DNA from: a virus
Virus record (IMG/VR): IMGVR_UViG_3300009104_001476
DNA length: 64,000 bases
Direction: 5' to 3' (one strand)
Shown: piece after piece, positions 15,866 to 42,492 of the stretch
Layout of the letters: every line of letters starts with the position of its first letter
How positions within the stretch are numbered: the stretch's first letter is position 1
Notes under the pieces: generated by a model
Seen by the model: the letters and a program-made list of their open reading frames with translations, nothing else
What the model was told of the DNA's origin: nothing
The model's database searches: none
Made by a program: the position numbers and the translations under genes

Positions 15866-16984
15866 ATGGGAAAAAATAGAATCATTTATCAGAGTCAGGC
15901 CGTGTATGCCGGGCCCGCCGCCCCTAGTGGAACCTATCTCAATGAGACAGGTGTTGCGGCAGGCGTATCATACGCTCAACCTTCGAACCTCCAACGTGTA
16001 CAGAACGTCAACTATAGCTTTGACATTTCTCGTACAGATGTTAACCAATTTGGTGAGCTAGCAAATATCGACCGGGTTATTCTCGAATCTCCTTCTGTGT
16101 CGCTGGACTTCTCTTACTACTTTGCAGATTTTGCAAACGAGAAGACGCTTGGCTTTACCATCATGAACAACTCTACTCTTAAGTCTTCCATCTCTGGAAT
16201 GCTTAACCGAGTGACCGATGAGAGAAATTATTATGTTAGGGTAGTCAACGAAGGTCAAGACGTTAACGATCTTACTGGGGCGACTACAACTGGCACGGGC
16301 GTTAATGACGTGGTTGCTATCGGTAATGCCTTTTTGGCATCTTACTCTAGTGACGCTTCTGTGGGAGACTTCCCAACTGCAAGTATCACTGTGGAAGCTT
16401 TGAATATCGCTTTCGATAAGGGTACCACAGGAAATATTATTCCTGCCATTAACCCCACTACAGGCGGAAAGAAGACGCAAACATATGCACTTCCAGATGC
16501 AAGCTCGAATGTCCAAAACGATTACTCGGTCGTAAGACCCGGAGATATCACCATGGACCTCGCTACGGGGCTTTTAGGTGCAGACGATGGCGACGTTAAG
16601 ATCCAAAGCTACAGCTTAAGCTTTGACTTGGCTCGTGAGCCACTGCAGCAGCTTGGAAGTAAGTTCGCGTTTGCTCGTGAAATGACCTTCCCTGTTACGG
16701 TTTCTCTATCTGTTGACGCTCTATTGGGCGATCTGCGTACTGGCAACTTGGCTGACCTCGTTTCTGGTGACGGCACCTCGGTGCACGATCTGGTAATCCA
16801 CCTTAAGAGTGGAGGAGACGACCACTGTCAATATCTCTTGAAGCAGGCTAAGCTTGACGGACACAGCTATAGCACCTCGATTGGTGACAACAAGACTGTT
16901 ACGTTGAACTTCAGCTCTCAGATTGGTTCTTCACAGCAAACTGGTGTTGGACTGTTTATGAGTGGTGTTGGACACGACGCATAA
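15866..16984 (+). CDS. Major tail tube protein with two tandem tube-like domains
   Basis: 372 aa; internal duplication RVQNVNYSFDISRTDVNQFG / KIQSYSLSFDLAREPLQQLG; position before chaperones and TMP; followed by a strong terminator. Confidence 0.75.
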   Translation: MGKNRIIYQSQAVYAGPAAPSGTYLNETGVAAGVSYAQPSNLQRVQNVNYSFDISRTDVNQFGELANIDRVILESPSVSLDFSYYFADFANEKTLGFTIMNNSTLKSSISGMLNRVTDERNYYVRVVNEGQDVNDLTGATTTGTGVNDVVAIGNAFLASYSSDASVGDFPTASITVEALNIAFDKGTTGNIIPAINPTTGGKKTQTYALPDASSNVQNDYSVVRPGDITMDLATGLLGADDGDVKIQSYSLSFDLAREPLQQLGSKFAFAREMTFPVTVSLSVDALLGDLRTGNLADLVSGDGTSVHDLVIHLKSGGDDHCQYLLKQAKLDGHSYSTSIGDNKTVTLNFSSQIGSSQQTGVGLFMSGVGHDA

Positions 16985-17338: not shown

Positions 17339-18250
17339 ATGAGGATATTAAACGAGTTCTTTCTCGAGAAAGAGGAAAACGTTGAGGAAGTAGAGACATC
17401 TACCAACGAAAAAGGCGAAGAGATAAAAACTACTAAGTCTGTAAAAAAGCCTGTAAAAAAAACCTTCGTAGTTAAAAAACCAAATCGTTCTCTATACGAT
17501 GAGGCAGAATTATTTTATGGCGTCAAGCTTTCTGAAGGTATCAAAGCGGGTCTTTTAACCCGAGCTCTCTTAGCTAAAAGGTTTAATAACGATGGCGGGA
17601 TTCTTAGCGAAAACGAAAAAGATAAATTTGCTACTCTTTACATGGGTCTTTTTGAAAAACAAGCCAAGCTTCAAAAATTGGAAATGAAAGTAGCTAAGGA
17701 TTTAACAGATAAAGAAAAGAAAGAAAAAGAAAAAATCATTGAAGAGTTAGGCGCGTCTAGGGAAGAAATACAAGAGTTTGAGATGGCTCAAGCGAGCTTA
17801 TTTGATCAAACGGCAGAAAATAGAGCCCGTAATAAAACTATTCTTTGGTGGGTATTACAATTGTCTTATGAAAAAGATGGGGATAATTACATAGAGGTCT
17901 TTTCCGGAGACAGTTACGAAGATAAAGTAGCTGAATATGATCGCTATGAAGATCAGGAAGACGACTTCCTAGATGAAATGCTAAAGAAGCTTTCTTATGT
18001 TGTTAGTTTTTGGTTTGTAACCAAGGCTGATACAAAAGAAGAGTTAGACGTTTTATTAAATACTGCTGACGAAGAAGAGATCACAGGGGAGCCTTCTCAA
18101 GAAAAACCTGAAGAAAAACCTGAAGAAAAACCTAAAGAAAAACCTAAAGAAGAGCTTGAAGAAAAGACTAAAGAAAAACCCGTAAAAAAAACAAATCGGA
18201 CAAAAAAAGTTGATAACGATAAGTCCAAAGTTGAAAAAGAAGAAAAATAA
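17339..18250 (+). CDS. Putative tail assembly chaperone with charged EKP(E/K) tail
   Basis: 303 aa, lies between tube and TMP; low-complexity K/E/P C-terminus. Confidence 0.55.
   Translation: MRILNEFFLEKEENVEEVETSTNEKGEEIKTTKSVKKPVKKTFVVKKPNRSLYDEAELFYGVKLSEGIKAGLLTRALLAKRFNNDGGILSENEKDKFATLYMGLFEKQAKLQKLEMKVAKDLTDKEKKEKEKIIEELGASREEIQEFEMAQASLFDQTAENRARNKTILWWVLQLSYEKDGDNYIEVFSGDSYEDKVAEYDRYEDQEDDFLDEMLKKLSYVVSFWFVTKADTKEELDVLLNTADEEEITGEPSQEKPEEKPEEKPKEKPKEELEEKTKEKPVKKTNRTKKVDNDKSKVEKEEK
18101..18148 (+). repeat. Four 12-bp tandem repeats GAAAAACCTRAA (EKPE/EKPK)
   Basis: read directly. Confidence 0.9.
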
Positions 18251-18264
18251 AAATTGATCTTCTT

Positions 18265-18296
18265 AGCCCCACCCGAAAGGTGGGGCTTATTTTTTT
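18265..18296 (+). terminator. Rho-independent terminator
   Basis: AGCCCCACC-CGAAA-GGTGGGGCT followed by a T-tract. Confidence 0.85.
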
Positions 18297-18300
18297 ATAA

Positions 18301-19344
18301 ATGAAGAAGCCTGTAAAGAAATTAACCAAGAATAAGCTAAAAGGTTTATATTTAAACGTATTAAAAGGATATACTGTTTGTGAGAAAACGGAGAATCTTA
18401 ATGAGTTTTATATTAAACATTTAGATATTCATTCTTCTACGGACATTGATGAAGCTCACGATTCTCATTTCGACAGAGCTAAAAAAAAGGGCTTACCCAC
18501 GGAGGAAGACCAGCTCAAGTATTTAGACAAAGAAGAGCTATGGACAAACAAAGAAGAAATGGAGCTGCAAAATCAAGAGGAAATGATCAAGAGGCTTCGA
18601 CTTTCTAAAAGCAAAGTCATTCTTCAAGCTCAAATTAATTATTTCAATGAGGAGATAGAAAAAGAAACGATTATTCTTCACGAAAAGATAGATAAAAAAA
18701 ACGATCTCATGGGGTTCACTGCTGAAGCTTATGCTAACAAAAAGATTAATGAGTTTTATATTTATAATACCTTATATAAGGACCCTGATCTAAAGCAATT
18801 GTATTTCGAAAAAGAAGAGTTTGACTATATAAATTTTGAAAATTTCTCGAAGTTAATAGCTGCTTACAATGAAAATACAAAACATTATAATGCTTTAAAC
18901 CTGAAGAGAGTAGCTTTAAGCACGTTTTTTTTAAATTATTTTTACCTATGCGACGACAACCCTCAAATATTTTTTGGTAAACCTGTAATTGATTTAACTT
19001 ATCATCAGGTAGAATTATTCGGATACGCTAGGCATTTCAAACATATGATGTCTGAAGCTAAGTCTAAACCGCCAGATGAATTTTATGACGACCCAGACAA
19101 GCTTATAGAATACGTAGAAGCGGGTAAAAATGCTGAATCTATAATCGAGAAAGCTCAATCACAAGGTAAGGACAATGCTGCAACCTCTATTGTTGGGGCG
19201 ACCAAGGAAGATCTGAAAAGAATGGGTTTATCTGCCGGAAATCATGATGTGGGAGATGTAAATCTAAGCAAAGTGGCGTCTCAAAAAGACGGATCTTTAG
19301 ACATGGATGACTTGATAAAAATCCACGAAAAGGGAAGTCTGTAA
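18301..19344 (+). CDS. Putative second tail assembly chaperone (pre-TMP gene)
   Basis: 347 aa, helical, immediately upstream of the TMP. Confidence 0.5.
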   Translation: MKKPVKKLTKNKLKGLYLNVLKGYTVCEKTENLNEFYIKHLDIHSSTDIDEAHDSHFDRAKKKGLPTEEDQLKYLDKEELWTNKEEMELQNQEEMIKRLRLSKSKVILQAQINYFNEEIEKETIILHEKIDKKNDLMGFTAEAYANKKINEFYIYNTLYKDPDLKQLYFEKEEFDYINFENFSKLIAAYNENTKHYNALNLKRVALSTFFLNYFYLCDDNPQIFFGKPVIDLTYHQVELFGYARHFKHMMSEAKSKPPDEFYDDPDKLIEYVEAGKNAESIIEKAQSQGKDNAATSIVGATKEDLKRMGLSAGNHDVGDVNLSKVASQKDGSLDMDDLIKIHEKGSL

Positions 19345-19393: not shown

Positions 19394-22300
19394 ATGGCAG
19401 AATCCGCATCAGTAAGAGTAAGGGCAGAGTTAGACTCGCGCCCCGCAGAGAAAACCTTGGCCCGCTTTGTAAAAAAAGCGGAAAGTGTTGATGTAAGGCT
19501 GTCTTTAAAAGACAAGAACTTTACTCAGCCTCTCGGAAGAATTACCGGAGCCGCTGACGAGTTCAATAAATCTCTCGCTGCTTCGAACGCTCGCGTCGTA
19601 GCTTTCGCGGCCTCAGCTGGGTTAATGTATTCCGTCCAAAGAGCTTTAGTCTCTGTTACTAAATCAGCCATTGAGGTGGAGGCAGCCTTGGCTGATATCA
19701 ATGTTATCCTTGGAGCTTCCTCTACAAATCTTGCTAAATTTGGAGATCAATTATTTAAAATAGCAGGGCAAACTGGTCAAGCTTTTCAAACAGTTACCGT
19801 GGCCGCTACTGAATTGGCTCGTCAGGGTTTATCGATGGAGGAAACCCTCAGGCGAACTAAAGATGCCATGATCCTGACTAGATTGGCCGGTATGGATGCG
19901 GCTTCAGCCGTAGACGCCTTAACGGCCTCAATCAACTCATTCAACAAAGCGGCTATCACGTCTACCGAAATAGTAAACAAAATGGCTACAGTCGATGCGG
20001 CCTTTGCGGTAAGTACAAACGATTTAGCGGACGCCTTAAAACGCGTAGGTAGTAGCGCTATTGACGCGGGAGTTAGTTTCGACCAGTTGATGGCTATGAC
20101 TACATCAGTGCAACAGATTACTGCTCGTGGTGGCGCAGTTATCGGTAACTCATTAAAGTCTATCTTCACCCGCATTCAAAGAACCGAGGTTTTGGATCAA
20201 CTGCAAATGTTGGGCGTGGCAGTAAGAGACATGAAAGGAAATACTTTACCAGCTATCCAAATCATGACCCAATTGGCTAAAACTATAGATAGTTTAAGCT
20301 CTGCTCAAAAAGCTAACATTACAGAATTAATGGGTGGCGTCTTCCAAATCAACGTAGTTAAAGCTGCTCTCGGTGATTTAGGTAAGGAATATTCTATTTA
20401 TCAAAACGCTTTAAAAGTTTCTACAGACGCAACCGACGCAGCGACTAAAAGAAATGAAAAGTTAAATGAAACTCTATCTGCTTTAGTAAATAAAACTTTC
20501 CAGAACGTTAAGAAAGCAGGCGCGGAGATCGGCAAATTAACTATCGCTCCAGCCTTGGAGGGGGTGCTAGATAAAGTAAATAGTGCGCTGGAAAAATTCG
20601 ACCCGAAAGATTCAGAAAGCACTGGTAATAAAATTGCTCGAGGAATTCTGGAAGGCATAGGTAACTTCATTAAGGGACCCGGGTTAATTATTGGTTTAGC
20701 TGTCATAGGAAAACTTCTTCAACAATTCGGTAAATTTGCTAGCGACTCATTCAAAGAGTTCTTTAATATCAACGAAGCAGCGAAAAAAAGACTCGCTATG
20801 GAGAAGTTTATTAATCAAGAACTATCTCACAACGAAGATTTAACACAAGCTATATTATCGGGAGAACTGAAAGTTGCTGATGCAGAAAAAATTATATTAA
20901 AAGGTTTAGAAGCTCGAGTTCTCCAGCAGGAGAAATTAAATAGGTTGATCAAGGAGGCTTCTTACGGGCTGAGCCGTAGAGGGGCTCATGCGGCATTGGT
21001 TGATCCGACAGAAGGAACTTACGCAGTTAAGCCTCCTAAAAGGTCTGGTGGCCATGTCCCGAATTTTTCTCAGATAGATATTCAGGCTTTAGTTAAAGAA
21101 GAGTTAACGTCTGCAAGCTATGCAAAATCAGGCACGAAAGCTGTAATTGATACCTTACCCGGTTTAGGACTCCATGTAAGAAATACCGAAGAGAGCATAT
21201 CTTACGCTCCGGGTATGAGGTCTCCTTTTATCAATCCCCCAATTGATAGTCCCGAAGGAAGAACTCATAGAGAAAAATCAATACGGCAGACTGGTATAGA
21301 CCCTTATCAATTATCATCGAGTTCAGGGCTTCCGGGTTTTGCCAAGGCTAACAAAAAAAAGCCTACCCCAAAAATAAAAGACTTAAGATCTAGTAATAAA
21401 TCAAAAGGCGTACTTCTCCCAGAGTTTGGCAGGAACGACACGAACTTAACGTTTCAATCAAGTCTAGCTCAAGTCTTTCCTGACACTAAGAGCCTAGAGA
21501 GGCAGAAATGGGCAGAAAAGGGCTTTACCGGTTTTAAGATGACTGGTGTAAAAGCTGCTAGATTAAGAGAAAAATCTTCAGCCTCTTTCGACACCTTGTT
21601 AGATTCCAATTTCGACCCCGCGATACAAGGCTTGGGTTCATCTATAGTAGGAACCAATAAGGGTAAACTTCCTAAAAAGACCACCGGAAAATTTTCTGAT
21701 TACTTTGATAAAAAAGCTTGGCCTCAAACTAAAGGTCGAATCTTCGAAGCGGCTTTAAATTATGTTGCAGTTAACATGTCTGCAAAAGCTCAAATGAACA
21801 ACAGGCTTGCAGAGATTAAAAATCTTACTGGAGGAGAAACTTGGGATTTCCCAGATATAAAAAATCAATTGGCGTCTTTATATAAGATTCAGCCGGCGGG
21901 GAACTGGGACGCTAAGTCGAACATTGACCAAGGGACTCAAGCCTCTATTATCAAGAAAACTTTGAATACTAAATATCAAGGTAAAACTATTCCAAATAAA
22001 TCTGCCGGATCTATTCCTAACTTCAGCCTAGGCCAAAAAGTTATGGGCATAAATACTATTCAGGCAAAAAACGCGATAGAAAGATTTAGATCTGGAGAAA
22101 TTTCGCAAGCGCAAGGATTAGTTACTCAGATTAATTCTTCCAGAAGTTTATCTTCAGCAGAAAAGAGCACATTGAAAGAGGAGATCAATGCTATTAGACG
22201 TCAAAAGAAAAACGCAAAGAATCCTAAAGGCCTAACTATCGATGGGACTAATTTAGGGAGCATGCTAGTTCCAAGAGTCGGCTCTTCTCAGGGAACCGGT

Positions 22301-25300
22301 TTAGCTAAGCCTAAAATAGATAAAGACAATACCTTGCTCCGTCAATATCTTTCGAAAAATTACCAAGCGAAAACTGGATTAAATTTTGACAAGCTCCCTG
22401 AAGAAGCGAAAAAGAAAGTCATAAGCTCAACGAAAGCTTCATTTCCTGTTTTGGCTCCTTCTCGAGGCAACAACGTCAACATTGTCGATGATGTAGCCAC
22501 CGCGATAGAAAAAGAAACTAGAAGCTTCGTAGCAAGCATGAAAGGCGGGAGTGAAGCCAAAAAAGCAAACGTACTAAACAACTTAAGCACTCATCAGAGT
22601 AGTATCAGCTCCGCTGCTGGAGCAGTATTTGAGTCAGGAATTAAATCAGCTTTTGATTTAGAAATTGGGAAAACAAATGATAGGTTCGATGTCTCGACCT
22701 CTGCAGGTCTTAAGGAGGCTTTTCCAATTGAAACCCCTTATGGAGAATTTAAAATAGATGATAATAGCCCATTGAGACAAGACATGGCCGCAAAGATTTT
22801 GAGGCAAAAAATACAAATGGGTATAGCTTCCGGGGGGCATGTGCCAAACTTCGCATCTCCCCAATCTTTGACAACGCCGCCTCCGCCGTACACACGTGAA
22901 GAGACCGAGAGATTAATCAAGCTCTGGACCAGCGGCAAAGCAAATCGTTTTGATCCAAACGATTTGTGGGAATCCATGCCTAGGAACAGAAGAGGCCCCG
23001 AGGTAGACCCAATTACGGGGTTACCTGTAAGCCTCAAAAGTCCTACTCACTCAGCCCGTTTGCAAAGGGGCTATCAGGGGAATCCCGCCTTTGGGTTTGG
23101 ACTCAGCCCTTGGTCCGGGGGGGCTGTCGAACCAAGAGTAAATCCGAGAACGGGCTTGCCTTATGCTGGGGGTTTTATTCCTAGTTTTAGCAAAAAAGAT
23201 ACAAACAGAATGAGAGAGTCTAAACAGGCGGGAGTGCCTTATTCTCAGACTTACCTCAGCTTCGTTGATACGTCGAAATACGCTGGCCCTGTGATAGGGA
23301 ACAGAAAGGATGAACCAACCTACCAAGCCCTGATAAAAGCCGTTAGAAGCCATCCTGACCCCAAGAATGCAGGTATGGCAGCGGGTGGATACATCCCGAG
23401 TTTTGCTGATGCTGCAGATGCCCCCGCCCCTCTACCGATAAAGAAGATGAATCTAGATGATCTTGGTTCTGAACCTCTGAAAAGGGTTAAAACGCTAGAG
23501 TCTAAATTGAAAGGCTTTGTAGCGAGGTTAGAAAAAATGAACGAAACTACGGGCGGCTTAAGCCCAGAAGTAAATGAAGCTGTAGAAGAAGCAAAAGGAG
23601 CCCTTTCATTTGTTCAGAAGACTGGGAAAAAGTTAGGAGAGCTTGGTGGTAAAATTCAAGAGCTAGAAGATGAACTGAAGCCGTTGGAAACTGATCTTGA
23701 CGAAGCTAACCTGTCAATTCAGGGAAGCAATACTCATCTTGAGGGCTTACGCGGCGAGCTTGAACAATTTAAAGCCGAGTTGGGTCAAACGGAAGACGGA
23801 GTAACTCTCGCGAGAGAAGATTTGAAAGCATCTAATAATGCTATATCAAGCTTACCCAATCTGGAGGATGGGTATAAAAATTTAAAAACAAAGGAAGAGG
23901 AAAAGCTCCAAGAACTAAGAGCCGCAGAACAAGCTGCTGGAAAACAAGAAAGAAAAAATCTGGTTAATAAGAGAGCTGTGATCCAAGGGGACTTTGACGA
24001 AGAGGGAATGCGCCACGGTCAACCTGATAGAGTGGGGTACACAAAAAGCGTTTTAGGAGAATTAGGAGCAAACGCTGGCCAAGCAGGAGGTAGGAGTTCG
24101 ATAAAGACCTTAACGGAGGGGGTTGGAGCTAGCAAGACGGGTCAACTAGATTTAAAGGCTCAAGATGCTCTTGCGATAACTTTACAAAAGCAAAGAAACG
24201 CCGCAATCATGGGGCAACATGACGAAGCACAGAAGATAGAAGATGAATTCAGGCTTACTCATAAAATCTCAGAAAAACATACGCATACCCAAGATGCTTT
24301 AGATAAAGTTTTTCAGAAAAATTTAGACGCCGGCACAACCATAGGTAACAAGGCCGAGGAAGAAGCAGCCCTGTGGGATAAAACAACACAAGCCAAGAAG
24401 GCTGAGTATGAGACTGCCAAAGACAAGACAAAATTAGCTGAAGGTGAATATAAAGAAGCGAAGAGGCTGAAGGGCTTGCGCGGTAAAAGAGAAAAAGCTT
24501 TAGATAAAGCAACAAGAGCGGAAGAGAAAGCGGCTGATCAGGTAACATTGACTAATCGTAAGATATCAGAAGGAAATCAAGAGCGGGATAAGCAAAAACG
24601 TAAACAAAAAGATATAAATAATAAAATTGATAAAGTCAACAAGGAGTTGGATGATGAGGTAAAAGCACAGGCGGCAAAAACAAAAGAAGTTGAGGAAGGC
24701 GTAGATAAGGCAAAAAAAGTTAACGATTCCACGGGCAAAGTTGAGAAAGGACTACAAAAAGAAGCTGAGGGTCGTAAAAATCAAAGCTTCGGAGCAGGAT
24801 CATACAATCCGTGGTCTCAGCAAGGGAAAAGATATAAATCTCTAAAGGTTGCTGCTGGTGGAGATACGGATGCACTTGCCGCTCTTGGACTGACTCAAGG
24901 GCAAGCTCAGGGTGAATTAGCTGGAGCTAAAGAACAAAGACAACAAGCCATACAAGGTAAAGCTATGTTGGCTTCAATGGCGTTGCCGATGGTAACGAGC
25001 ATGGCTGCTCAACATTTTGAAGAAGGTACTGAAGAAGGCGCGCGCGGCAAGGCGGGGGCGGAGGCAATCGGACAGGCAGGCTCTATGGCTGCTATGGGTG
25101 CGATGTTTGGACCTTGGGGTGCAGCTGCAGGTGCCGTTGTCGGAGCAACAATGGGGATTATAGACGTTTTAGGCAAGTGGGAAGATAAAACTTATGAATT
25201 TAATACCGCTGCGGAAACAGCAGAGGAGAAATTGACTAAATTCAATAACGCTTCACAAACTTATTTAAAGTCTCTTACTGAATTCAACGAAGTAATGACT

Positions 25301-28300
25301 TCTACATCTGGTGAAATTGACGGAAATAAAGCTGACAAATTTAGAAAAAATCTTAGCGAAGCTTTACTAAGTATTCCAAGTGAATACAGATTCCAACTTA
25401 GCAAGGCTCAAGGTAATGTAGAAAGGATTCAAGAGATCTTTGCAGAAATTCAAGCAGACTTGCAAAGAGACGCGAATACCAGAAGAGCTCAAGCGGACTT
25501 AGCCACAGAGATAGAAGAAAGAATACCTAGAGGCAAAGGGAAGATGTTTAAAGGAAAGGAGAGTGATAGCGATCAGAAAAAAGTTTTCGAAATGATCAAG
25601 AGTACTTTAGACATGAGTAGGTTTTACGGAGAGGAAGGGGAAAAGCTCGGAGCTAAATTAAGAAACGCTTCTAAAAAAATAGCTAGCGATTTTAGTGGCT
25701 TTAAGGCCGTTTTAAAAGAGGCTGGCGCAGACGCAAAAACCTTAGAATTGCTAGACGATATGCTTGAAGGTGGCGCGTCGAATATAACGCTGTTAGGTGA
25801 TGAATTTGAAAACTTTGGTTCAGACGCCGCTCTCGCTTCTAGAGCAGGAGATAATTTAACCTCTTCAATACTCGCTTATAGAAGAAGAATGGAGGCGGTC
25901 AAAGAAGAACAGGATAGATGGAACTCTATAATGGACGAATCTAAAGAACGAGTTAAAAGACTCGCGTCTGTATTGCTCGACAGATTAAAATTCATAGACA
26001 ACATGAGGAATCAGCGGGCCGCCCATGCTAGAGGCATGGCCATGACCGAAATAAAAGGCAGACAACAGGTAGCTCAACCGTTTATAGATAATATACAAAA
26101 GGTAGACTTAGGAGCTTCGGTTCAACGAGCCGATATGCAAAATAAACAGGTGAACTCTTTAGAAAAACTTAATAGCTCTATTAAGATAGGTTTAATCGGC
26201 ACTATAAATGATAAATTTGAAAAACTAACGACTTCTACTGAAAGGATAACTGAAAACGCAAGTGAAGACCAGAACCTTACAAATAACGAGCTACAAAAAC
26301 AAAATAAAACTTTAACAGGATACAGAGACGCTTTAATTAAAGCTGTAACGTCAGCTTCAGGTGGCGGGGACACGTTTCACGAAATAGCCGCCTCAATGAA
26401 AGAAATCATAAAGAAAGCAGAAGTAACGGGTTCTGCGCGCGCCGCATTGGAAAGCGATTTATTAGCCGTCGTAGAAAAAGGAAATCATGACTTGGCGTTA
26501 ATGAGTGATGCTCACAAGAATGAACTAGAAACACAAAGACTAAGCGCTCAGTACCAAAAAGAGACTGCTATAAACACAAAGCAAATGGCCCAATTAGGAA
26601 CTATTGGAGGAATGATGGCCGGGCCAGACTTTTCAAAGATTAATAAAGTGTTTGAAGATGCAGCTTTAAGCTCTTTTAGAGCAAACTCTGATCAAGAAGG
26701 AAGCAGGAGCTCTCTAAATATCTTAGATTTATTAAGAAATTTTGCTGGAACATCAGGAGCAGCTTTACCGGCTTCAATGAGAGCAAACGCTGTGGAGGGG
26801 GTAAAAAGTAACCTTTCCACTAAAGTAGCTAGAATCCGATCAGGTATGGAAAGTACCGGGCAAATGACTCCGGAGCTACAAGAAGAACTTGACCAGTTAA
26901 ATAATAACCTAGACGAAATAGCAGAAACTAAAGTCGCCGCCCAGCTAAAAGATGTTCCGACTCACTTGCAAACCATTGCGGACAAAATTAGCAGTCTAAC
27001 AGATAAAACCGTAAATGAAGCCTCTATGGAGCAAGCTGTTGCGGCGGCACTAACATCGGTCATGGGCGGTTCTTCTAAGCATATAGTTGATCCTTTAGTA
27101 AGAATAGAATCTATACTTAACTTCCAGAGGGGAATTAACGAAATTAAACAAGTACAGAACAACGTAGCTGATGCGTTAAAGGCTCAACAACAACTAGCTG
27201 GAAATATAGAAACGAGTATGAGTGAAGTGGGAAGTATGGCGATAGACTTGGCTAAGAATGTACCCGACTCTATTTTAGACGCCACTGTAGGAATGAATAT
27301 TAAACAAATTCGAGGTCTTATAGATAACGAAGGACAAGGTTTTACGCAAGATGCGGAGGGGCTTGCTAAACAGAAAGGTGCCCTTCAGAAGTTAATGAAC
27401 GTGGTGATCAAGTTAGACGGCACAATAACGAGGGGTAAGGTTTTCGATACTGACTGGGGGCTAAATTCGCCCGATCTTGTCGCTGAAAGGGAGGACGCTA
27501 AAATTATAGGTGGAAATACAAGTGCGATAAGTAGAACGGGGCAAGGGTCGATGCTTCATAAACAGATAGTAGATTTAAAGGCGAATCAAGAGAAGTTTGA
27601 AAGTGACACGCGTTCAGGTAAGTATGACGAAGCCTTTAATGAGGGGATGAACCTTACAAAAATATCAGCTCTGAAACGGCACATGTACGGCGCGGGCCCC
27701 ATATCGGATGTCATCAGGATTACGAAGGAGCATTTAAGGATGAACAAAGAGTTCGGGTTTAAAGGGCCGGGAGAGGGACCCCGAGTCGATCATCAGCTTA
27801 TCGAGAAATTTATTAATAAACTTGTAACATCCTCGGCTTCACTAAAGGGCGATGAGAAACTCGATTTCGGTGCCGTATGGGGTTTACTAAGGGAAGCAGA
27901 TCAGGAATGGGTAAATCAAAAAGGTCCAAGATACGGGATGGCTTTTAATCAGAGTGACGGAGGGAACCTCACTAATCAAAAGAAGGTTGTAAATGCTGCG
28001 CTGCTGGCTTTAGCTACGTATGCTGAGAATCAGAAGTCTGGAGCTAGCATAGATCACTCTGGGTCGTGGTCAGATCAATCTGGGCGAAGGAAGACGGTAA
28101 GGGAAGAAGTAAGAAATCAAATGAACGCGACCATGCAAGGACTTCAGCAGAGAGCCGATGATCCGCTACAAACGGGTAGAAAACATCAAGTGCTACCCAC
28201 TTTCGATCAATTAACGGGAGAGGGGGGGTTGCTAGATAAGCAACTAGTTAAGAACCAAGAAGTGGAAAGTGCTCAAGCGGAAATGCGCAGATTAATGGCC

Positions 28301-31300
28301 CAGTTGACAAAACGCTCAACGGCTGAGCAAGTCAATATGATGAGGGACCGTTATGCTGGAGAGATGAGACAGAGAGAAGGTAAAATGGGCGCTATAGTTA
28401 CTGGACTAGGCATAGGACCGGGCGCAAAGGATGAGGTGATGGACAAATTAAAGAAGGCGAGCTCGGTTGAAGAGGTGACAAAAATCATAAAAGACGCGGA
28501 TGGAGAAGTCTCAGATAAACAAAAAGTCACTCTAGAGCAACTTGAAGGCGAAATACAAGAACATAAAGCTCAGAAAAAAGTCTTAGAAGAAATTACGGCC
28601 ATTTATAATCGGAAAAAGGCTACCGCTGCCGCCGCCGCGGCTGAAGAAGAAGAAAAACTGAAAGTAGAAAGAAAAGCTCTAGAAAAGGAAGCAAGCGGTA
28701 AGATCGGCCAAGCTCTAGAGCTAAAAACTCCCGAAGCGAAAAGAGCATTCAATAAAGAGATTAGAAATATGGATTGGAAAAAGCTTTCTGAGCTAAATAC
28801 ATATTTCGATGAACAGGAAGCAGGCGTTTTACACGCACTGTATCCGGGCTCGAAGGACCTAGAGGAAGCTTTATCTCCTACAGGAGGCTTACTCGGAGAA
28901 GGGAGTGCGGCTAAGAGGAAAACAGTCAAAGAGATGATGGCGGAGAGAACAAGGCAAGCCGCAGGAAGAACTGCGAATTTATTTGGAGATAATATATTTA
29001 GTTACGATGCAGAACTTCAAAAGGCTGGCTTTAAGGAAAGATATACAAATCCAATGCTTCCCGGACAGAATAATGCTTTTAAAAATGCAAAAATAGATGA
29101 CCCGTTTCAAATCCGCGCTGGAGCAGAAGTCACTTTCATGGATGACAAGGGTATTATAGAAAGCATTAGAGACAGATACGCTACAATTGGAGTTGGCGCT
29201 CAAGAGGCTAAAGCCCTTACGCAAGACGTGGCCAAGAAAGTTATTAAGGGGAGATTGGAAGCCTTCAAACTATTTAAAAATTCAGACTTAAGTTATAGTC
29301 AATATATAGTTAAGTTAGCGGGAGCTGAACTGGAAATGTTTAGAACAGATGCTGCATCCGGGAAAATAAGCCAAGCAGACTTAGCCGGTAAGTTAAAGGC
29401 TCAAGTAGATAAAGAGTTAGGAGAAGGGTTAAATGTCGATCATTTATTCGCTCAGTACTTGCACGCCAACATGTCCATGAATAAGAAAGACTATGATAAT
29501 TTAGCTCGCACAGTTGCAGAGTCAATGGCTTCAGGATTGATGGGACATAAAGGCGGTGGAATTCATTCTGCTCAATTAGTTCAAGATAAGAGTAAAAAAA
29601 TCGTAGACCGTGTGAAGGGCCTTGAATTAGGTAAAAGTCAAACAACGGCTTATACTAATGCTCTAGGAACATTCGAAACATTCCAAATGAATTTTAACCT
29701 AGGCTTAGGGGGCAGAGCACAGATGCTTGCTGCTTTAAATACGAAACTTCAATCTGCTCTTCAGAACACTAGGGGAACAGATGGCGAGATAGAAAAAGCT
29801 TACGATGAATACATAGAAGCTTTAACTACTGGCTTAAGGCCTCAAGATAAAATTATGGAACGTAAGGGCATAATGGATTCTACGGGTAAGAAGGTGGGGA
29901 GAGATCAGATAAAAACTTTAGATTCGAAAGTTGAAAGTATAGTAAACAAATACGAAGGTCAGGCCGCGGCTGGCCTGATAACAGAGGAAGGCCGGACAAC
30001 TCTACAAAATGCTGAAAGCATACTTGAGGCTACAAAGCTAGCTAACGAAAAAGACTTAGTCTCTACGGCCGCTATGACCACCGCAAGAAAGAATTTTTTA
30101 GACGCCTTACTTAAGCATGGATCAGATCAGACGGCGGTTGCTGATGCTTATAGGAATTACGCCGCGTCTGTGGCCGCTAAATTTAAACCGCAAGATTTAA
30201 CCGGTATTAGCGCACAAGTTACGGGGCAATTTGGTCAAGAAATGATGGGACCAGACGCAGGCACTTTTGGCGCAACCTCGCAAGCTATAACCGAGAAGTA
30301 TAATAAGGCGTTCGGGAAGGGACAAATATCGAAAGCAGCAGTACCAAGATTAGCAAAAGCCGAAGGGGCGCTCAAAGCTGCTGAAAGTAAAGCTAAAGCA
30401 GGAGTCTTAACTGCGGAACAATTAACGGGCGCTTATTTGAAATTTCTAAATACTCTCAATTCTGAAACTAATAAGCTTACTGAGGTTCAAGCGGCTTATG
30501 AGAAATATACAGCGAGCTTAGGTGAGAAAAAGGGCGGGAAGGATTTGGTCACAAGCAGAACCAAAGTCCTTGAGGCTACGAGAAAAGGCGCCACAAGAGG
30601 CGGTCAAGCTGGATTAGTTGAGGAAGTCGAGTCAATAACCAAAGCCAATCAGAGACTTTTCAATAGAGGAAAATTAACCGGTGAAAGCTTAGAAGCTTTA
30701 AATAAAGCAGAAAGTCAGTATCATAATGCTCAAACCAATTGGGCAAACGGTTTATCGAGCACTGCGGCGTTGATGGCTGCAGCATCTAAGAATCTTCAAG
30801 CGGCTGTCGCTTCCGGCAACACTGGTAAAATAAAAAAAGCATTAAATGAATACATATCGAAATTAGATACAGAGCTTAAGCCTCAAGACTATCTTGAAAA
30901 AGCTGGTAAATTCATTCAAAAAAATCAAAACAAAGTAGGAAAAGGTAATAGAGAAGACTTCGCTAAGGATTTGAAAAAAACATCAGACAAGTACGAAAAG
31001 TTAGTTGATGAAGGGTTATTGACCGAGCAGGATGGTCAAATTATTTCTCAAGCTTTAGCAGACTTTGGCGCAGCTCAACAAAACTTCAAAGACGGTTTGA
31101 TTTCTCAATCGCAACTTTTGAAAAGTGCTGAAAATCAATTATCAAAAATCTCTGGCACAAGCGGAAGCGCTGAAATCAAAAAAGCCATGAAAGACTATAT
31201 GAAGGCGTCAACTGAGCCTATCGACGCCTTGTCCACCTTACAAGAGACCGGCAAAGATCTGGGGTCCTTGGGCGGGGGGATACTGGGTAAAGATCTGGGC

Positions 31301-33604
31301 AAATTCAAAAAGCAACTTCAAGGCATAAACCAGTCTTACAACGACTCGGTCAATGATGGTACCCTTACTAGACAAAACGCTAAGACTTTAAAGAAGGCAG
31401 CTAAAGACTTCGCTCTCTCTGAATATGAATTTGGTAAAGAGATGAGAGGTTCAGCGGATCACATTAGCGCAGCTAAATCTCTGCTTGAGAAGCATTTAAA
31501 AGTAGGCAGCAAAAAAACAGAGCAGTCTTTGAAAAAGTATTTAAAAGCTATTGATGGAGCCACGACCCCTTTAGATGTAAAGCAGTTTAATATAGGTCAA
31601 ATCACAAAATTTGCAGAACAATTAACTAAGGCGGAAAGAAGAAAATTCCGCAGAAGCTTAAATGGAAAAGATTTCAAAGAGATAAGAGCTTCTAGGGAGC
31701 GTGGAGAAATATCAAGAAAGGAAGAGAAAGATATATCAAGTAAGCTGGGTGAAATCAAAAAGTTAGAAGCCGAGGGCGCCCCTCTTGAAGAAATAAGAAA
31801 AGCTTGGGACGATTACTACAAATTGAGAGGAAGGGCATATGATTCAGAGACTGAATTTATAAAAGGTCTGGCAAATTTTTATAGATTGAGCGGTCAAGGC
31901 GACATTAAAGAGGTAATGGACACCACTAGAAGGGGTATTGTGAATCAATCTAGAGGAGACTTCTCTGACCTTGATGAGGCCCAAGGGTTCAATCAGAACT
32001 TAATCGACTATCAAAACGAATTAAGGACTATAGCTGCAGAAAGAGGAGCAACCGAAAACGATCTTAAAGATGCCCTTAAGGCTGAAGCCGAATATCAAAA
32101 AATGATTATTGACTTTAACAAAGGCAAGATCCAGTCTAAAGATAGGATAGCTGGTGCTGACGCAGCACTAAAGGCTAAGAGAGCAGCAGGGAAGGACACG
32201 GCGGACGATTTCCTTGACGCTATGCAGGCAAGATTTTCATACGGCAAAAGAGAGGCGATTCAAGCTATACAAGACACTGTGTTAAATATGATCGATACTT
32301 TTGAAAGCGAATTAAATGACGCTTTATTTAACGCTATTTCGGGAGCTAAAGACGCCAAAGAAGCCTTTAAAGACATGGCTGACGCCATGCTTGATGAAAT
32401 AACTAGAATGAGTATAGAAGCGACCACTAGGGCTGTTATAGGAAGCTTAGGGATACCGGGTATGGCAAGGGGTGGATTGGTAACGGGTGGATCAGGAGTT
32501 AAAGATGATGTTCCTAGGCTGTTACAGGGGGGAGAATTCGTAATAAAGAAAGATTCTGTGGATAAGTTTGGACCGGGATTATTTAAAGCTCTAAATGAAC
32601 AAAATGTTGCCCAGTTTAGTGAGGGGGGGGTTGCTAGCTCTTTAGAGACCCCTTTGCAACGAAGTATGAGGAGTAAGGGTATTGGAATAGGGATGGAGAA
32701 GGTGGAGCATGTCCCTGATCCTCAAGGAGGACTAAGTAGTATTTCTGACACTAAAGGCGGAGGCTCTGGATTTACCTTGAGAAACGCTTTTGTTTTCGAT
32801 GACGATAAAAGGCCTACGGGTGGGGTTCTTGAAGTAGATTCAAGGTTAAGTAGAAGAGCTTTAATGGATCCAGATAACCCGAGGAATAAAGTAAGGATGG
32901 ATAAAGAAAAAGCTTTGGTAGATTATACGGAACAAAGAATGCAAGACTGGGAAGATTATCAAGAGGCTATGCAAGATTATTATGATAAAAGAAAAAATCG
33001 GTGGAGAATGGCTGGGTGGAATATAGCTATGCAATTAGGCTTAAATTATATGAAAGGCGATAGGGGTGGTGCTAAAAATAAGGGAGAGGGTCGCTTGCAT
33101 GGAGCATGGGACTGGGTTAATGATAAAATAAATAAAAAGGACAATGAACCTTTCCCGGGTGGACAACAGCCGCAAAGAAGAGCTCAAGGAGGCTTTATTC
33201 CGTTTGCAAACGGAGGTCTTAGCTCTGATAAAATACCAGCTATGTTAACCGCTGGTGAATATATAATGAGTAGAGAGTCCGTAGAGAAATATGGTATCGA
33301 CACAATGCGTAAGTTAAACCAAGGACAAGTAGGGGGGTATGCTAAAGGAGGTTTAGTAAATGAAGGAGGTCCGTCTAGTAGTGGAGCGAGTGGTTTATCT
33401 GGCTCTGTAGCAGGAACTAATAACGTTAACATTACAGTAAATGTTGATAGCACGGGCAAGGCTGATAGTCAGTTATCTTCTCAGGGGAGTGCGGCTTCCG
33501 AATCCGAGCAATCTAAGAATATGGCTAGGCAAATAGAAACAGCAGTTGTGGGGGTGTTGTTACAACAGCAGAAACAAGGCGGTATGCTTAGAAAAACTAG
33601 GTAA
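19394..33604 (+). CDS. Tape measure protein, 4736 aa, with internal cargo-like segments
   Basis: N-terminal TP901-type TMP region (ATELARQG, MATVDAAFAVS, RGGAVIGNSLKSIFTRI); long A/K/E-rich helical body; two C-terminal copies of the D.(V/I)P..L..GE(F/Y)(V/I) motif; aaggaataagga RBS. Confidence 0.9.
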   Translation: MAESASVRVRAELDSRPAEKTLARFVKKAESVDVRLSLKDKNFTQPLGRITGAADEFNKSLAASNARVVAFAASAGLMYSVQRALVSVTKSAIEVEAALADINVILGASSTNLAKFGDQLFKIAGQTGQAFQTVTVAATELARQGLSMEETLRRTKDAMILTRLAGMDAASAVDALTASINSFNKAAITSTEIVNKMATVDAAFAVSTNDLADALKRVGSSAIDAGVSFDQLMAMTTSVQQITARGGAVIGNSLKSIFTRIQRTEVLDQLQMLGVAVRDMKGNTLPAIQIMTQLAKTIDSLSSAQKANITELMGGVFQINVVKAALGDLGKEYSIYQNALKVSTDATDAATKRNEKLNETLSALVNKTFQNVKKAGAEIGKLTIAPALEGVLDKVNSALEKFDPKDSESTGNKIARGILEGIGNFIKGPGLIIGLAVIGKLLQQFGKFASDSFKEFFNINEAAKKRLAMEKFINQELSHNEDLTQAILSGELKVADAEKIILKGLEARVLQQEKLNRLIKEASYGLSRRGAHAALVDPTEGTYAVKPPKRSGGHVPNFSQIDIQALVKEELTSASYAKSGTKAVIDTLPGLGLHVRNTEESISYAPGMRSPFINPPIDSPEGRTHREKSIRQTGIDPYQLSSSSGLPGFAKANKKKPTPKIKDLRSSNKSKGVLLPEFGRNDTNLTFQSSLAQVFPDTKSLERQKWAEKGFTGFKMTGVKAARLREKSSASFDTLLDSNFDPAIQGLGSSIVGTNKGKLPKKTTGKFSDYFDKKAWPQTKGRIFEAALNYVAVNMSAKAQMNNRLAEIKNLTGGETWDFPDIKNQLASLYKIQPAGNWDAKSNIDQGTQASIIKKTLNTKYQGKTIPNKSAGSIPNFSLGQKVMGINTIQAKNAIERFRSGEISQAQGLVTQINSSRSLSSAEKSTLKEEINAIRRQKKNAKNPKGLTIDGTNLGSMLVPRVGSSQGTGLAKPKIDKDNTLLRQYLSKNYQAKTGLNFDKLPEEAKKKVISSTKASFPVLAPSRGNNVNIVDDVATAIEKETRSFVASMKGGSEAKKANVLNNLSTHQSSISSAAGAVFESGIKSAFDLEIGKTNDRFDVSTSAGLKEAFPIETPYGEFKIDDNSPLRQDMAAKILRQKIQMGIASGGHVPNFASPQSLTTPPPPYTREETERLIKLWTSGKANRFDPNDLWESMPRNRRGPEVDPITGLPVSLKSPTHSARLQRGYQGNPAFGFGLSPWSGGAVEPRVNPRTGLPYAGGFIPSFSKKDTNRMRESKQAGVPYSQTYLSFVDTSKYAGPVIGNRKDEPTYQALIKAVRSHPDPKNAGMAAGGYIPSFADAADAPAPLPIKKMNLDDLGSEPLKRVKTLESKLKGFVARLEKMNETTGGLSPEVNEAVEEAKGALSFVQKTGKKLGELGGKIQELEDELKPLETDLDEANLSIQGSNTHLEGLRGELEQFKAELGQTEDGVTLAREDLKASNNAISSLPNLEDGYKNLKTKEEEKLQELRAAEQAAGKQERKNLVNKRAVIQGDFDEEGMRHGQPDRVGYTKSVLGELGANAGQAGGRSSIKTLTEGVGASKTGQLDLKAQDALAITLQKQRNAAIMGQHDEAQKIEDEFRLTHKISEKHTHTQDALDKVFQKNLDAGTTIGNKAEEEAALWDKTTQAKKAEYETAKDKTKLAEGEYKEAKRLKGLRGKREKALDKATRAEEKAADQVTLTNRKISEGNQERDKQKRKQKDINNKIDKVNKELDDEVKAQAAKTKEVEEGVDKAKKVNDSTGKVEKGLQKEAEGRKNQSFGAGSYNPWSQQGKRYKSLKVAAGGDTDALAALGLTQGQAQGELAGAKEQRQQAIQGKAMLASMALPMVTSMAAQHFEEGTEEGARGKAGAEAIGQAGSMAAMGAMFGPWGAAAGAVVGATMGIIDVLGKWEDKTYEFNTAAETAEEKLTKFNNASQTYLKSLTEFNEVMTSTSGEIDGNKADKFRKNLSEALLSIPSEYRFQLSKAQGNVERIQEIFAEIQADLQRDANTRRAQADLATEIEERIPRGKGKMFKGKESDSDQKKVFEMIKSTLDMSRFYGEEGEKLGAKLRNASKKIASDFSGFKAVLKEAGADAKTLELLDDMLEGGASNITLLGDEFENFGSDAALASRAGDNLTSSILAYRRRMEAVKEEQDRWNSIMDESKERVKRLASVLLDRLKFIDNMRNQRAAHARGMAMTEIKGRQQVAQPFIDNIQKVDLGASVQRADMQNKQVNSLEKLNSSIKIGLIGTINDKFEKLTTSTERITENASEDQNLTNNELQKQNKTLTGYRDALIKAVTSASGGGDTFHEIAASMKEIIKKAEVTGSARAALESDLLAVVEKGNHDLALMSDAHKNELETQRLSAQYQKETAINTKQMAQLGTIGGMMAGPDFSKINKVFEDAALSSFRANSDQEGSRSSLNILDLLRNFAGTSGAALPASMRANAVEGVKSNLSTKVARIRSGMESTGQMTPELQEELDQLNNNLDEIAETKVAAQLKDVPTHLQTIADKISSLTDKTVNEASMEQAVAAALTSVMGGSSKHIVDPLVRIESILNFQRGINEIKQVQNNVADALKAQQQLAGNIETSMSEVGSMAIDLAKNVPDSILDATVGMNIKQIRGLIDNEGQGFTQDAEGLAKQKGALQKLMNVVIKLDGTITRGKVFDTDWGLNSPDLVAEREDAKIIGGNTSAISRTGQGSMLHKQIVDLKANQEKFESDTRSGKYDEAFNEGMNLTKISALKRHMYGAGPISDVIRITKEHLRMNKEFGFKGPGEGPRVDHQLIEKFINKLVTSSASLKGDEKLDFGAVWGLLREADQEWVNQKGPRYGMAFNQSDGGNLTNQKKVVNAALLALATYAENQKSGASIDHSGSWSDQSGRRKTVREEVRNQMNATMQGLQQRADDPLQTGRKHQVLPTFDQLTGEGGLLDKQLVKNQEVESAQAEMRRLMAQLTKRSTAEQVNMMRDRYAGEMRQREGKMGAIVTGLGIGPGAKDEVMDKLKKASSVEEVTKIIKDADGEVSDKQKVTLEQLEGEIQEHKAQKKVLEEITAIYNRKKATAAAAAAEEEEKLKVERKALEKEASGKIGQALELKTPEAKRAFNKEIRNMDWKKLSELNTYFDEQEAGVLHALYPGSKDLEEALSPTGGLLGEGSAAKRKTVKEMMAERTRQAAGRTANLFGDNIFSYDAELQKAGFKERYTNPMLPGQNNAFKNAKIDDPFQIRAGAEVTFMDDKGIIESIRDRYATIGVGAQEAKALTQDVAKKVIKGRLEAFKLFKNSDLSYSQYIVKLAGAELEMFRTDAASGKISQADLAGKLKAQVDKELGEGLNVDHLFAQYLHANMSMNKKDYDNLARTVAESMASGLMGHKGGGIHSAQLVQDKSKKIVDRVKGLELGKSQTTAYTNALGTFETFQMNFNLGLGGRAQMLAALNTKLQSALQNTRGTDGEIEKAYDEYIEALTTGLRPQDKIMERKGIMDSTGKKVGRDQIKTLDSKVESIVNKYEGQAAAGLITEEGRTTLQNAESILEATKLANEKDLVSTAAMTTARKNFLDALLKHGSDQTAVADAYRNYAASVAAKFKPQDLTGISAQVTGQFGQEMMGPDAGTFGATSQAITEKYNKAFGKGQISKAAVPRLAKAEGALKAAESKAKAGVLTAEQLTGAYLKFLNTLNSETNKLTEVQAAYEKYTASLGEKKGGKDLVTSRTKVLEATRKGATRGGQAGLVEEVESITKANQRLFNRGKLTGESLEALNKAESQYHNAQTNWANGLSSTAALMAAASKNLQAAVASGNTGKIKKALNEYISKLDTELKPQDYLEKAGKFIQKNQNKVGKGNREDFAKDLKKTSDKYEKLVDEGLLTEQDGQIISQALADFGAAQQNFKDGLISQSQLLKSAENQLSKISGTSGSAEIKKAMKDYMKASTEPIDALSTLQETGKDLGSLGGGILGKDLGKFKKQLQGINQSYNDSVNDGTLTRQNAKTLKKAAKDFALSEYEFGKEMRGSADHISAAKSLLEKHLKVGSKKTEQSLKKYLKAIDGATTPLDVKQFNIGQITKFAEQLTKAERRKFRRSLNGKDFKEIRASRERGEISRKEEKDISSKLGEIKKLEAEGAPLEEIRKAWDDYYKLRGRAYDSETEFIKGLANFYRLSGQGDIKEVMDTTRRGIVNQSRGDFSDLDEAQGFNQNLIDYQNELRTIAAERGATENDLKDALKAEAEYQKMIIDFNKGKIQSKDRIAGADAALKAKRAAGKDTADDFLDAMQARFSYGKREAIQAIQDTVLNMIDTFESELNDALFNAISGAKDAKEAFKDMADAMLDEITRMSIEATTRAVIGSLGIPGMARGGLVTGGSGVKDDVPRLLQGGEFVIKKDSVDKFGPGLFKALNEQNVAQFSEGGVASSLETPLQRSMRSKGIGIGMEKVEHVPDPQGGLSSISDTKGGGSGFTLRNAFVFDDDKRPTGGVLEVDSRLSRRALMDPDNPRNKVRMDKEKALVDYTEQRMQDWEDYQEAMQDYYDKRKNRWRMAGWNIAMQLGLNYMKGDRGGAKNKGEGRLHGAWDWVNDKINKKDNEPFPGGQQPQRRAQGGFIPFANGGLSSDKIPAMLTAGEYIMSRESVEKYGIDTMRKLNQGQVGGYAKGGLVNEGGPSSSGASGLSGSVAGTNNVNITVNVDSTGKADSQLSSQGSAASESEQSKNMARQIETAVVGVLLQQQKQGGMLRKTR
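29780..31900 (+). repeat. Degenerate ~112-117-aa protein repeats in the TMP
   Basis: Y..Y...L...L.PQD-like anchors with Pro at 29840, 30188, (D 30542), 30881, 31217, 31568; spacing 336-351 bp. Confidence 0.7.
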
Positions 33605-40321: not shown

Positions 40322-40324
40322 ATT

Positions 40325-40996
40325 CTATATCACCCTACCCGCTTCATCAATACGTTTTCTTTCTACTTCATAGTGAGACATTATAACTTGACTACCAACA
40401 GTTAGTCGACCATACCCTATTGGAACTGGTCCGCCCTCATTGATAATATTAACTGGCCCGTTAAATAAATAGGAATTAGCTAAAGCTTGTGGGTCTGAGC
40501 TAGGGTTAGTTATTTGCCTATCCTCTGGGGGATCAGGAGGCTCTGACAGGGCGTTTGCCAACCCCGCAAAGAACAAGTTCGCTCCGATTATTTTCATCGT
40601 ATTGTTTCCTCCGCTCAGCCCAATTAAGGCTGCGCCCCCTAGCATCCCACCCAATCCTCCGCCAAAGTCTAAAGCACCAGCAACGCTATCGAACAAACCC
40701 ATGGCTCCTTCTACGACAGGTGCAACATCGATAGTCTTTAGGTTTTTGTACTTTATATTTAATGGGCTAGTCTCCTCGTTCCCGTTGTCCGTAAGGGTAT
40801 TGTTGTTAACCCTTATCGAGAACTTGACCCCTTTTCTCGCTAGAGAATTTATGATAACTCTAAATTTAGAATTAGTCATGGTGTTTATAGCGTGAAGAGC
40901 TTCTTGAACGCTAGACACCGAGAGCTCCCAAGTTTTTCTACCGAGTTTCTTGCCTACAACACCATGAATGTTGATTTTTACTAAATTTTTATTCAT
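40325..40996 (-). CDS. Tail assembly protein (lambda gpI-like, ubiquitin-like N-terminus)
   Basis: 223 aa; IHGVVGKKLG...SSVQEALHAI, IDVAPVVEGA, GGPVPIGYGRLTVGSQVI. Confidence 0.85.
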   Translation of the reverse strand: MNKNLVKINIHGVVGKKLGRKTWELSVSSVQEALHAINTMTNSKFRVIINSLARKGVKFSIRVNNNTLTDNGNEETSPLNIKYKNLKTIDVAPVVEGAMGLFDSVAGALDFGGGLGGMLGGAALIGLSGGNNTMKIIGANLFFAGLANALSEPPDPPEDRQITNPSSDPQALANSYLFNGPVNIINEGGPVPIGYGRLTVGSQVIMSHYEVERKRIDEAGRVI

Positions 40997-41336
40997 CGTT
41001 TTCTGGCTCTAAGATTTCAAATTTCTCTGTAACGGTATTATATAAAATACTAACGATTTCTAAATCATCGCAAACCCCCTTATCTATGTCAGAGAAGGAT
41101 TGGCCTTCGATAGTGTGCGAATGATATACCGCTAAGATGTCTCCTTCCACTAAGGCGTCTAAATATTCGTCTACAGATATTTTAAAAAAGTTTTTTTTGT
41201 CTTTCGCTATATTTTTACACTCGATCGTCCTTAGGGCTCCCTCTTCCGACTCTATTAAAAAGCCGCAGCATTCCTCCGGAAGGTTTTCGTCTGCGTGTCT
41301 TTTAATTCTGCTTTTTATTTTACTACTTAATTGCAT
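40989..41336 (-). CDS. JAB/JAMM metalloprotease (lambda gpK-like, without the NlpC/P60 domain)
   Basis: 115 aa; PEECCG, YHSH, FSDID form an intact E..HxH..S..D motif; located between L and I. Confidence 0.85.
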   Translation of the reverse strand: MQLSSKIKSRIKRHADENLPEECCGFLIESEEGALRTIECKNIAKDKKNFFKISVDEYLDALVEGDILAVYHSHTIEGQSFSDIDKGVCDDLEIVSILYNTVTEKFEILEPENDE

Positions 41337-41337
41337 T

Positions 41338-42486: not shown

Positions 42487-42492
42487 AATGTT

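Follow-up and report, generated by a model that had tools for sequence, protein, structure and literature searches.

A polymorphic cassette of motif-fenced segments in the tape measure protein of an uncultured siphophage

The DNA considered here, called the window throughout, is a stretch of 64,000 nucleotides from IMG/VR virus record IMGVR_UViG_3300009104_001476; it is part of a 142-kb record of an uncultured phage, which is found in marine metagenomes, the best of them possibly its source samples. The longest gene of its tail module (19394-33604, + strand) encodes a protein of 4736 aa that can be identified from its sequence as a genuine siphophage tape measure protein (TMP). Residues 126-312 match PF10145 (E 3e-27; 96 bits against a cut-off of 33), six PHROG TMP families match the open reading frame (ORF), the protein matches Douge gp16, and Pfam and PHROG scans over its entire length return TMP families only. 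Moreover, the gene lies between tube and chaperone genes, which are identified by position, and the tip genes.

The protein consists of an N-terminal backbone (aa 1-549; 19394-21040), a cassette (aa 550-1337) and a ruler rich in Ala, Lys, Glu and Gln (23405-32443), all read from the + strand like the other TMP features below. The backbone is conserved among relatives, with a ratio of nonsynonymous to synonymous substitution rates (dN/dS) of 0.06, and is weakly hydrophobic at aa 68-89 and 421-450; the ruler has a dN/dS of 0.4 over its first 500 aa and contains a hydrophobic Gly-rich stretch at aa 1908-1929. Degenerate repeats of ~110 aa, 21-26% identical, were seen in ruler residues 3384-4116 (~29540-31750) with fragment queries and were not recovered by a single self-search. 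In the cassette a short motif recurs six times in frame within the one ORF, as a first-pass annotation made by a model from the letters alone had noticed, with coordinates that were off by 3-6 nt. The copies are RSGGHVPNF (motif 1, 21041-21067), the degenerate SSSSGLPGF (motif 2, 21314-21340), KSAGSIPNF (motif 3, 21998-22024), ASGGHVPNF (motif 4, 22826-22852), YAGGFIPSF (motif 5, 23162-23188) and AAGGYIPSF (motif 6, 23378-23404). Their final Phe residues stand at aa 558, 649, 877, 1153, 1265 and 1337, giving motif-to-motif lengths of 91, 228, 276, 112 and 72 aa, and they divide the cassette into a module A, three cargo segments (segments 2-4) and a module B. A C-terminal relative of the motif, which had been noticed as well, was located at 33179-33214.

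The family consensus of the motif is [SA]xG[FHY][IV]PNF, followed by A or S. A strict pattern, which was chosen after the data had been seen and which holds on independent proteins, matches the window TMP five times against a mean of 0.02 and a maximum of 1 in 2000 shuffles, and 122 relatives 382 times against 1.2 expected; the motif was not found in 311,000 residues of neighbouring non-TMP frames. Motif 2 falls below scoring with the position-specific matrix of the family, although a full motif stands at the same position in P0004 and other relatives. The residues P, N and F are conserved at 89-100%, whereas synonymous codons vary: of six third codon positions, 4.3 are alike within genes and 3.9 between genes against 3.1 expected, which is a mild excess. 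Because of this variation the motif is to be read as a peptide signal and not as a DNA recombination site. In the best structure model the motifs form low-confidence linkers between folded units.

Relatives were collected by a profile-free search with the cassette, which yielded 118 clusters at 50% identity, and by an alignment search, which yielded 80 IMG/VR loci. Their layout is constant: a TMP backbone of ~550 aa, a motif, module A (~85 aa), one to nine cargo segments that each end in a motif, module B (~72 aa), a further motif and the ruler. In the 105 complete cassettes of uncultured relatives A comes first, B comes last and the cargo lies between them. The first-pass annotation had regarded all five intervening segments as cargo-like; this holds for segments 2-4, but segments 1 and 5, our modules A and B, are fixed brackets in almost every member. 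Module A (21068-21313; helix, beta-meander, helix; model pLDDT ~60-70) has conserved E, Y, N and E residues, is found in nearly all relatives and is confined to TMPs or TMP fragments. Module B (23189-23377; helix, hairpin, helix) has conserved R-E and N..E. Both have E..G..N..E in common and are probably distant paralogues; the resemblance between them that had been proposed reaches 97.8% in HHalign with the flanking motifs but only 35% (E 4e-4) without them. In some relatives A or B is duplicated within the array, or a second motif-fenced cassette follows downstream (P0005 aa 1524-1602; L072 aa 1145-1257; L056 aa 1471-2573; P0016). Family members also occur in aquatic metagenome-assembled genomes (L083-L092) labelled Proteobacteria, Flavobacteriales, Marinimicrobia, Halobacteriovorax and Nomurabacteria, which are probably mis-binned. 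Apparent stand-alone cassettes turned out to be frameshift fragments, and TMP genes split near the cassette (L021:12960-12985, L098, L099) look like assembly frameshifts, none of them ending at a motif.

That the cassette is polymorphic and its modules exchangeable at the motif is close to certain. As had been anticipated, close relatives differ in how many segments they have and in which ones, and the boundaries coincide exactly with the motif. Clustering of the 377 cargo segments gives 142 clusters, of which 86 contain a single segment. Of 104 pairs whose backbones are at least 90% identical, 24 agree in their cargo string, and two pairs with 100% identity do not; these pairs are not independent, and some of the differences are swaps between divergent homologues. 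Segment 4 is the clearest variable slot: P0002 has a different segment there, and P0003, P0004 and P0007 have none. In its DNA the window resembles L081 up to the PNF codons in motif 4 and again from motif 5 onwards; these two motifs are the left and right breakpoints of the swap. In L082 segment 3 is joined to module B via a single motif, and cargo insertions duplicate the target motif. The exchange unit, as these alignments demonstrate, is one cargo plus one motif, so that gains, losses and swaps keep both frame and fence. Moreover, the 75-aa cargo that replaces segment 4 in L081 (L081:9448-9696) is 93% identical to L054:10797-11021, although the TMP backbones are 57% identical, indicating recent horizontal transfer of cargo between lineages. 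The boundary function that had been suggested for the motif is borne out for swaps, the motif itself being a peptide signal and not a DNA recombination site.

Purifying selection acts on the cargo. The dN/dS values from 18 independent pairs were 0.06 (backbone), 0.115 (motif), 0.19-0.28 (cargo), 0.07-0.23 (brackets) and 0.40 (ruler); non-nuclease cargo gave 0.19, from only four comparisons. The ruler is not shortened when cargo is gained (in one example the cargo is 161 aa longer and the ruler 8 aa shorter). One cargo slot, L072:4201-5682, holds ~500 aa of low-complexity Q/K/E-rich repeats and not a globular domain.

What do the segments of the window phage contain? Judged by sequence patterns, this phage carries two PD-(D/E)xK-like domains that are paralogues of each other, and an orphan of recent arrival. 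Cargo 1 (segment 2, 21341-21997; net charge +19; dN/dS 0.07 against L081) has the residues E785, D818, D839 and K841. Cargo 2 (segment 3, 22025-22825), a member of the commonest cargo family, combines a three-helix bundle with a PD-(D/E)xK-like core (E1080, D1099, E1118, K1120). The resemblance between the two that the first-pass annotation reported is not seen in pairwise comparison (z 0.2) and emerges between profiles (HHalign 97.2%, E 3e-11), which identifies them as paralogues. An iterated profile seeded by the G..FE part, with the other residues of the E/D/[DE]xK set left unseeded, collects 81 segments of 17 clusters with E in 96%, D in 100%, D/E in 100% and K in 87%, and no hits among shuffled sequences. 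At the level of this motif only, segments 2 and 3 match the catalytic pattern of PD-(D/E)xK nucleases. Cargo 3 (segment 4, 22853-23161) is an orphan for which a homologue search found none; as had been remarked before, it is rich in Pro (15.5%) and higher in GC (0.54; 0.51 at third codon positions, against ~0.40 and ~0.35 in segments 2 and 3), a composition consistent with the recent arrival of a GC-rich insertion. The segments had also been described as non-helical, which the models contradict: they are mixed alpha/beta with long helices. The low-confidence model of segment 4, made without relatives, looks disordered. The multi-domain models (pTM 0.40 and 0.26), in which the domains were folded jointly and with moderate or low confidence, gave only generic helical matches.

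Cassette segments are more Pro-rich and more basic than the ruler; 95% of the cargo segments are net basic, and the ruler is neutral. Library matches among the cargo of relatives include staphylococcal nuclease (E 2.5e-6), GNAT (E 0.002) and polynucleotide kinase (E 1e-4). Further cargo resembling ADP-ribosyltransferases (ART), protein kinases, HAD phosphatases or HExxH proteins was recognised by eye or pattern only, and of those compared with Pfam the majority gave no significant match; HExxH occurs in 3 of 347 unique cargo segments and in none of the window phage.

Two GEF modules lie at the C-terminal end of the TMP. The first (32447-32632) is flanked by G-x-h-x-x-[FYM]↓[AS]-x-GG junctions, where the arrow marks the proposed cut; the second (33176-33358) opens with AQGGFIPF↓ANGG, which combines features of the cassette motif with those of the C-terminal junction. 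Junctions and cassette motif are alike at G(-6), hydrophobic(-4) and F/Y(-1), and the pattern used to search for the junctions forced only A/S and GG. The C-terminal module matches the Douge TMP gp16 (PDB 8zdo) with E 1.5e-10, and the GEF profile matches residues 753-774 of lambda gpH with E 9e-6; the lambda junction agrees at F/Y(-1) and disagrees at G(-6). The 181-aa region between the two modules (32633-33175) is not ruler-like and may be a second, smaller cargo slot; in Douge gp16 ~400 aa lie between the two modules.

Upstream of the TMP gene lie a probable tail tube gene (15866-16984, +), named from gene order and without significant family match, and, directly before the TMP, two probable tail assembly chaperone genes (17339-19344, +), named from a position conserved in relatives; a family search with the latter two gave no family match. 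Downstream, a lambda-like tip module (M, L, K, I, J; 35210-43038, - strand; J and L by PHROG) is inverted relative to the TMP and is followed by a second tail-tube-like gene with an IPT/TIG domain (43156-44181, +). The tip module includes a gpK-like JAB metalloprotease (40989-41336, -; PF14464, E 5e-10; HxH-x7-S-x2-D intact), which is present in the window phage and 16 of 17 relatives, three relatives having two JAB genes. It is a stand-alone protein of 115 aa with its JAMM motif intact, leaving no room for the second domain of lambda gpK (199 aa). The 142-kb record is classed by IMG/VR as a provirus, 83% complete, and has a single tRNA-Leu gene (genome coordinates 27086-27173).

How could such cargo reach the host? 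We consider it likely that the virion carries it and that it is active in the host cell. The TMP would then act both as ruler of the tail and as carrier of a polymorphic payload. By analogy with TM4, T5, lambda and P23-45 the cassette would be threaded unfolded in the tail tube and add ~0.15 nm per residue; a 114-aa enzyme motif of the TM4 TMP adds ~20 nm of tail length (PMC1796659). Since the C-termini of TMPs are at the tip, the cassette would be head-proximal and leave the tail just before the DNA. The motif would be a protease recognition site cut at F↓A/S and a specialised copy of the C-terminal F↓AxGG junction, which is the least certain step, and modules A and B with their conserved E..N..E would be candidates for recruiting the protease or performing the cut. 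The freed basic domains could refold in the host and act on nucleic acids or proteins, in host takeover or counter-defence; alternatively they could stay tethered to the channel after delivery, release at F↓A/S being preferred. The payload would be renewed by recombination through the short motif and the flanking modules with the frame kept.

Our leaning towards cleavage at the motif, for which the balance tips slightly in favour, comes from circumstantial evidence, namely the likeness of the junctions and a size fit in lambda. From lambda gpH ~14 kDa is removed in a Gly-rich region at an unmapped site (PMC12617516), and a cut predicted at F733↓ATGG would release 12.5 kDa. A precedent for release is T5 pb2, which is cut after R1127, freeing an enzyme domain (PMC10038345). 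The favoured model, in which the tail carries the cargo in unfolded form and cleavage at F↓A/S sets it free, has in our estimate an even chance. The broadest version, a programmable multi-effector injection device in widespread uncultured aquatic siphophages, in which peptide tags release the effectors, paralogous brackets make the cut or direct it and the motif goes back to a lambda-type TMP processing site, is offered as a tentative proposal, on the doubtful side.

Several observations weigh against the favoured model. The family has no cultured members and no match among 50,697 phage records, and motif 2 is degenerate in the clade of the window phage. With the lambda site unmapped and T5 cut after an Arg, the F↓A link is circumstantial, and the JAB protease near the TMP is otherwise explained, since according to a conference report (PMC12908700) the homologue in lambda cuts gpI, making gpI the likely substrate here too. 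Most cargo segments have no library match, segment 4 looks disordered, and searches with Pfam, PDB profiles, Foldseek, VIA-align and Atlas gave no confirmation of a PD-(D/E)xK fold in segments 2 and 3; the effector domains that had been proposed thus gain from the selection on the cargo and from some enzyme-like segments, but not from a fold match for the nuclease call in this phage. Furthermore, the RNA polymerase of P23-45 gp96 is not cut out, the protein being of full length in virions (PMC10770324).

This last case leads to the main rival of the favoured model, in which the same payload stays uncut: the motif would serve as a flexible hinge, or as the place where a chaperone or threading factor docks, and would also provide homology for recombination, and the cargo would act at the DNA entry site while tethered to a membrane-anchored TMP. 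In addition to the gp96 precedent, it could be pointed out that no protease can be assigned, that motif 2 tolerates decay, that the motif is confined to TMPs, and that the mild third-position likeness among motifs is expected from recombination copying. Yet a passive linker needs neither P, N and F at 89-100% nor a dN/dS of 0.115, lambda gpH is cut in a region that holds a related junction, and the varied targets suggested by nuclease-, kinase-, ART-, GNAT- and phosphatase-like cargo favour release, by the reasoning used for polyvalent proteins (PMC5512222). An uncut tether is in our view possible and on the doubtful side.

Alternatively, the cassette could be excised during assembly, with the cargo acting in the producing cell as a late-expressed polyprotein, packed elsewhere or discarded, and never passing through the tail. 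Lambda and T5 TMPs are processed during tail assembly and internal segments can be removed, and a ruler that does not shorten on cargo gain fits cargo that does not count toward length. But the cleaved TMP pieces remain in lambda and T5 virions, a late enzyme need not sit in a ruler, and uncompensated length equally fits a growing tail as in TM4, which makes excision improbable. Least probable of all is an array of mostly parasitic or neutral passengers, homing-type nuclease-like domains inserted in frame at a tolerant conserved site, as PD-(D/E)xK-like domains being the commonest cargo, the duplication of the target motif by insertions and the movement of cargo between distant backbones could suggest, because homing is impossible for many of the cargo types (GNAT, P-loop kinase, HAD-like, ART-like), purifying selection extends to the non-nuclease cargo in the few comparisons available, and order and brackets are fixed with at least one cargo kept in 105 of 105 cassettes.

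For the model of delivery and release several consequences can be drawn. Few routes are known by which long-tailed phages bring ready-made enzymes in with their DNA, and a TMP that accommodates as many as nine exchangeable domains would be one. If so, abundant marine and freshwater phages would carry many unrecognised early effectors, and the ~140 cargo clusters would represent a large untapped set of day-zero effectors including counter-defence nucleases. The F↓A bond in the FATGG junction is a concrete prediction for the old open question of where and how lambda gpH is cut. Tail length would be set in part by payload: if the 0.15 nm per residue of TM4 applies, the tail would measure ~710 nm, of which ~120 nm would be due to the cassette. 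New from this window are a clean series of near relatives for one slot, the description of the A and B brackets, the estimates of selection and the link to the lambda-type C-terminal junction.

A literature search, which missed most subscription papers, found no paper on the motif or the architecture, and known systems share parts of it. Polyvalent proteins (Iyer et al. 2017, PMC5512222) likewise combine unrelated enzyme-like domains in one virion-associated polypeptide of a late gene, with proposed delivery at invasion and processing; TMPs have no occurrence in that paper. The window TMP is also encoded among virion genes. At the level of the family, matches to nuclease, GNAT and polynucleotide kinase and catalytic-looking motifs suggest unrelated enzyme domains, whereas the window phage has only the two paralogous nuclease-like domains and the orphan. 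In contrast to polyvalent proteins, which have MuF, ArdC-N or DarA-N anchors and an MPTase protease, the window TMP has none of these in Pfam and PHROG scans, and it fences every domain by one repeated motif between two brackets. The 5,002-aa TMP gp96 of Thermus phage P23-45 is similarly giant and carries in its N-terminal part an enzyme, the virion RNA polymerase, that works in the host, but it is one conserved enzyme for which neither a repeated fence nor swapping is reported (PMC10770324). TM4 motif 3 (PMC1796659) and T5 pb2C (PMC10038345) are enzyme domains inside a ruler, the former counting toward length and the latter cut free; they are muralytic and act outside the cytoplasm, whereas the cargo of the window family is basic, has the character of domains that modify nucleic acids or proteins, and comes in arrays of one to nine. 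Lambda gpH and Douge gp16 have C-terminal GEF modules homologous to the two of the window, and the F↓AxGG junctions of these modules are similar to the cassette motif and fall within the region of the gpH cut; lambda, however, has no N-terminal cassette.

In polymorphic toxin systems (Rhs, CDI, MuF toxins) a conserved carrier is joined to exchangeable effectors at a conserved peptide. There the effector is a single C-terminal tip, whereas the cassette lies inside the protein (aa 550-1337 of 4736 in the window TMP) and has one to nine domains across the family. A search at the locus revealed no immunity gene or orphan cassette adjoining the TMP, and the genes that follow it are convergent and conserved whatever the cargo. 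The window TMP thus appears to be polyvalent-like in its working and polymorphic-toxin-like in its logic, though not in its layout.

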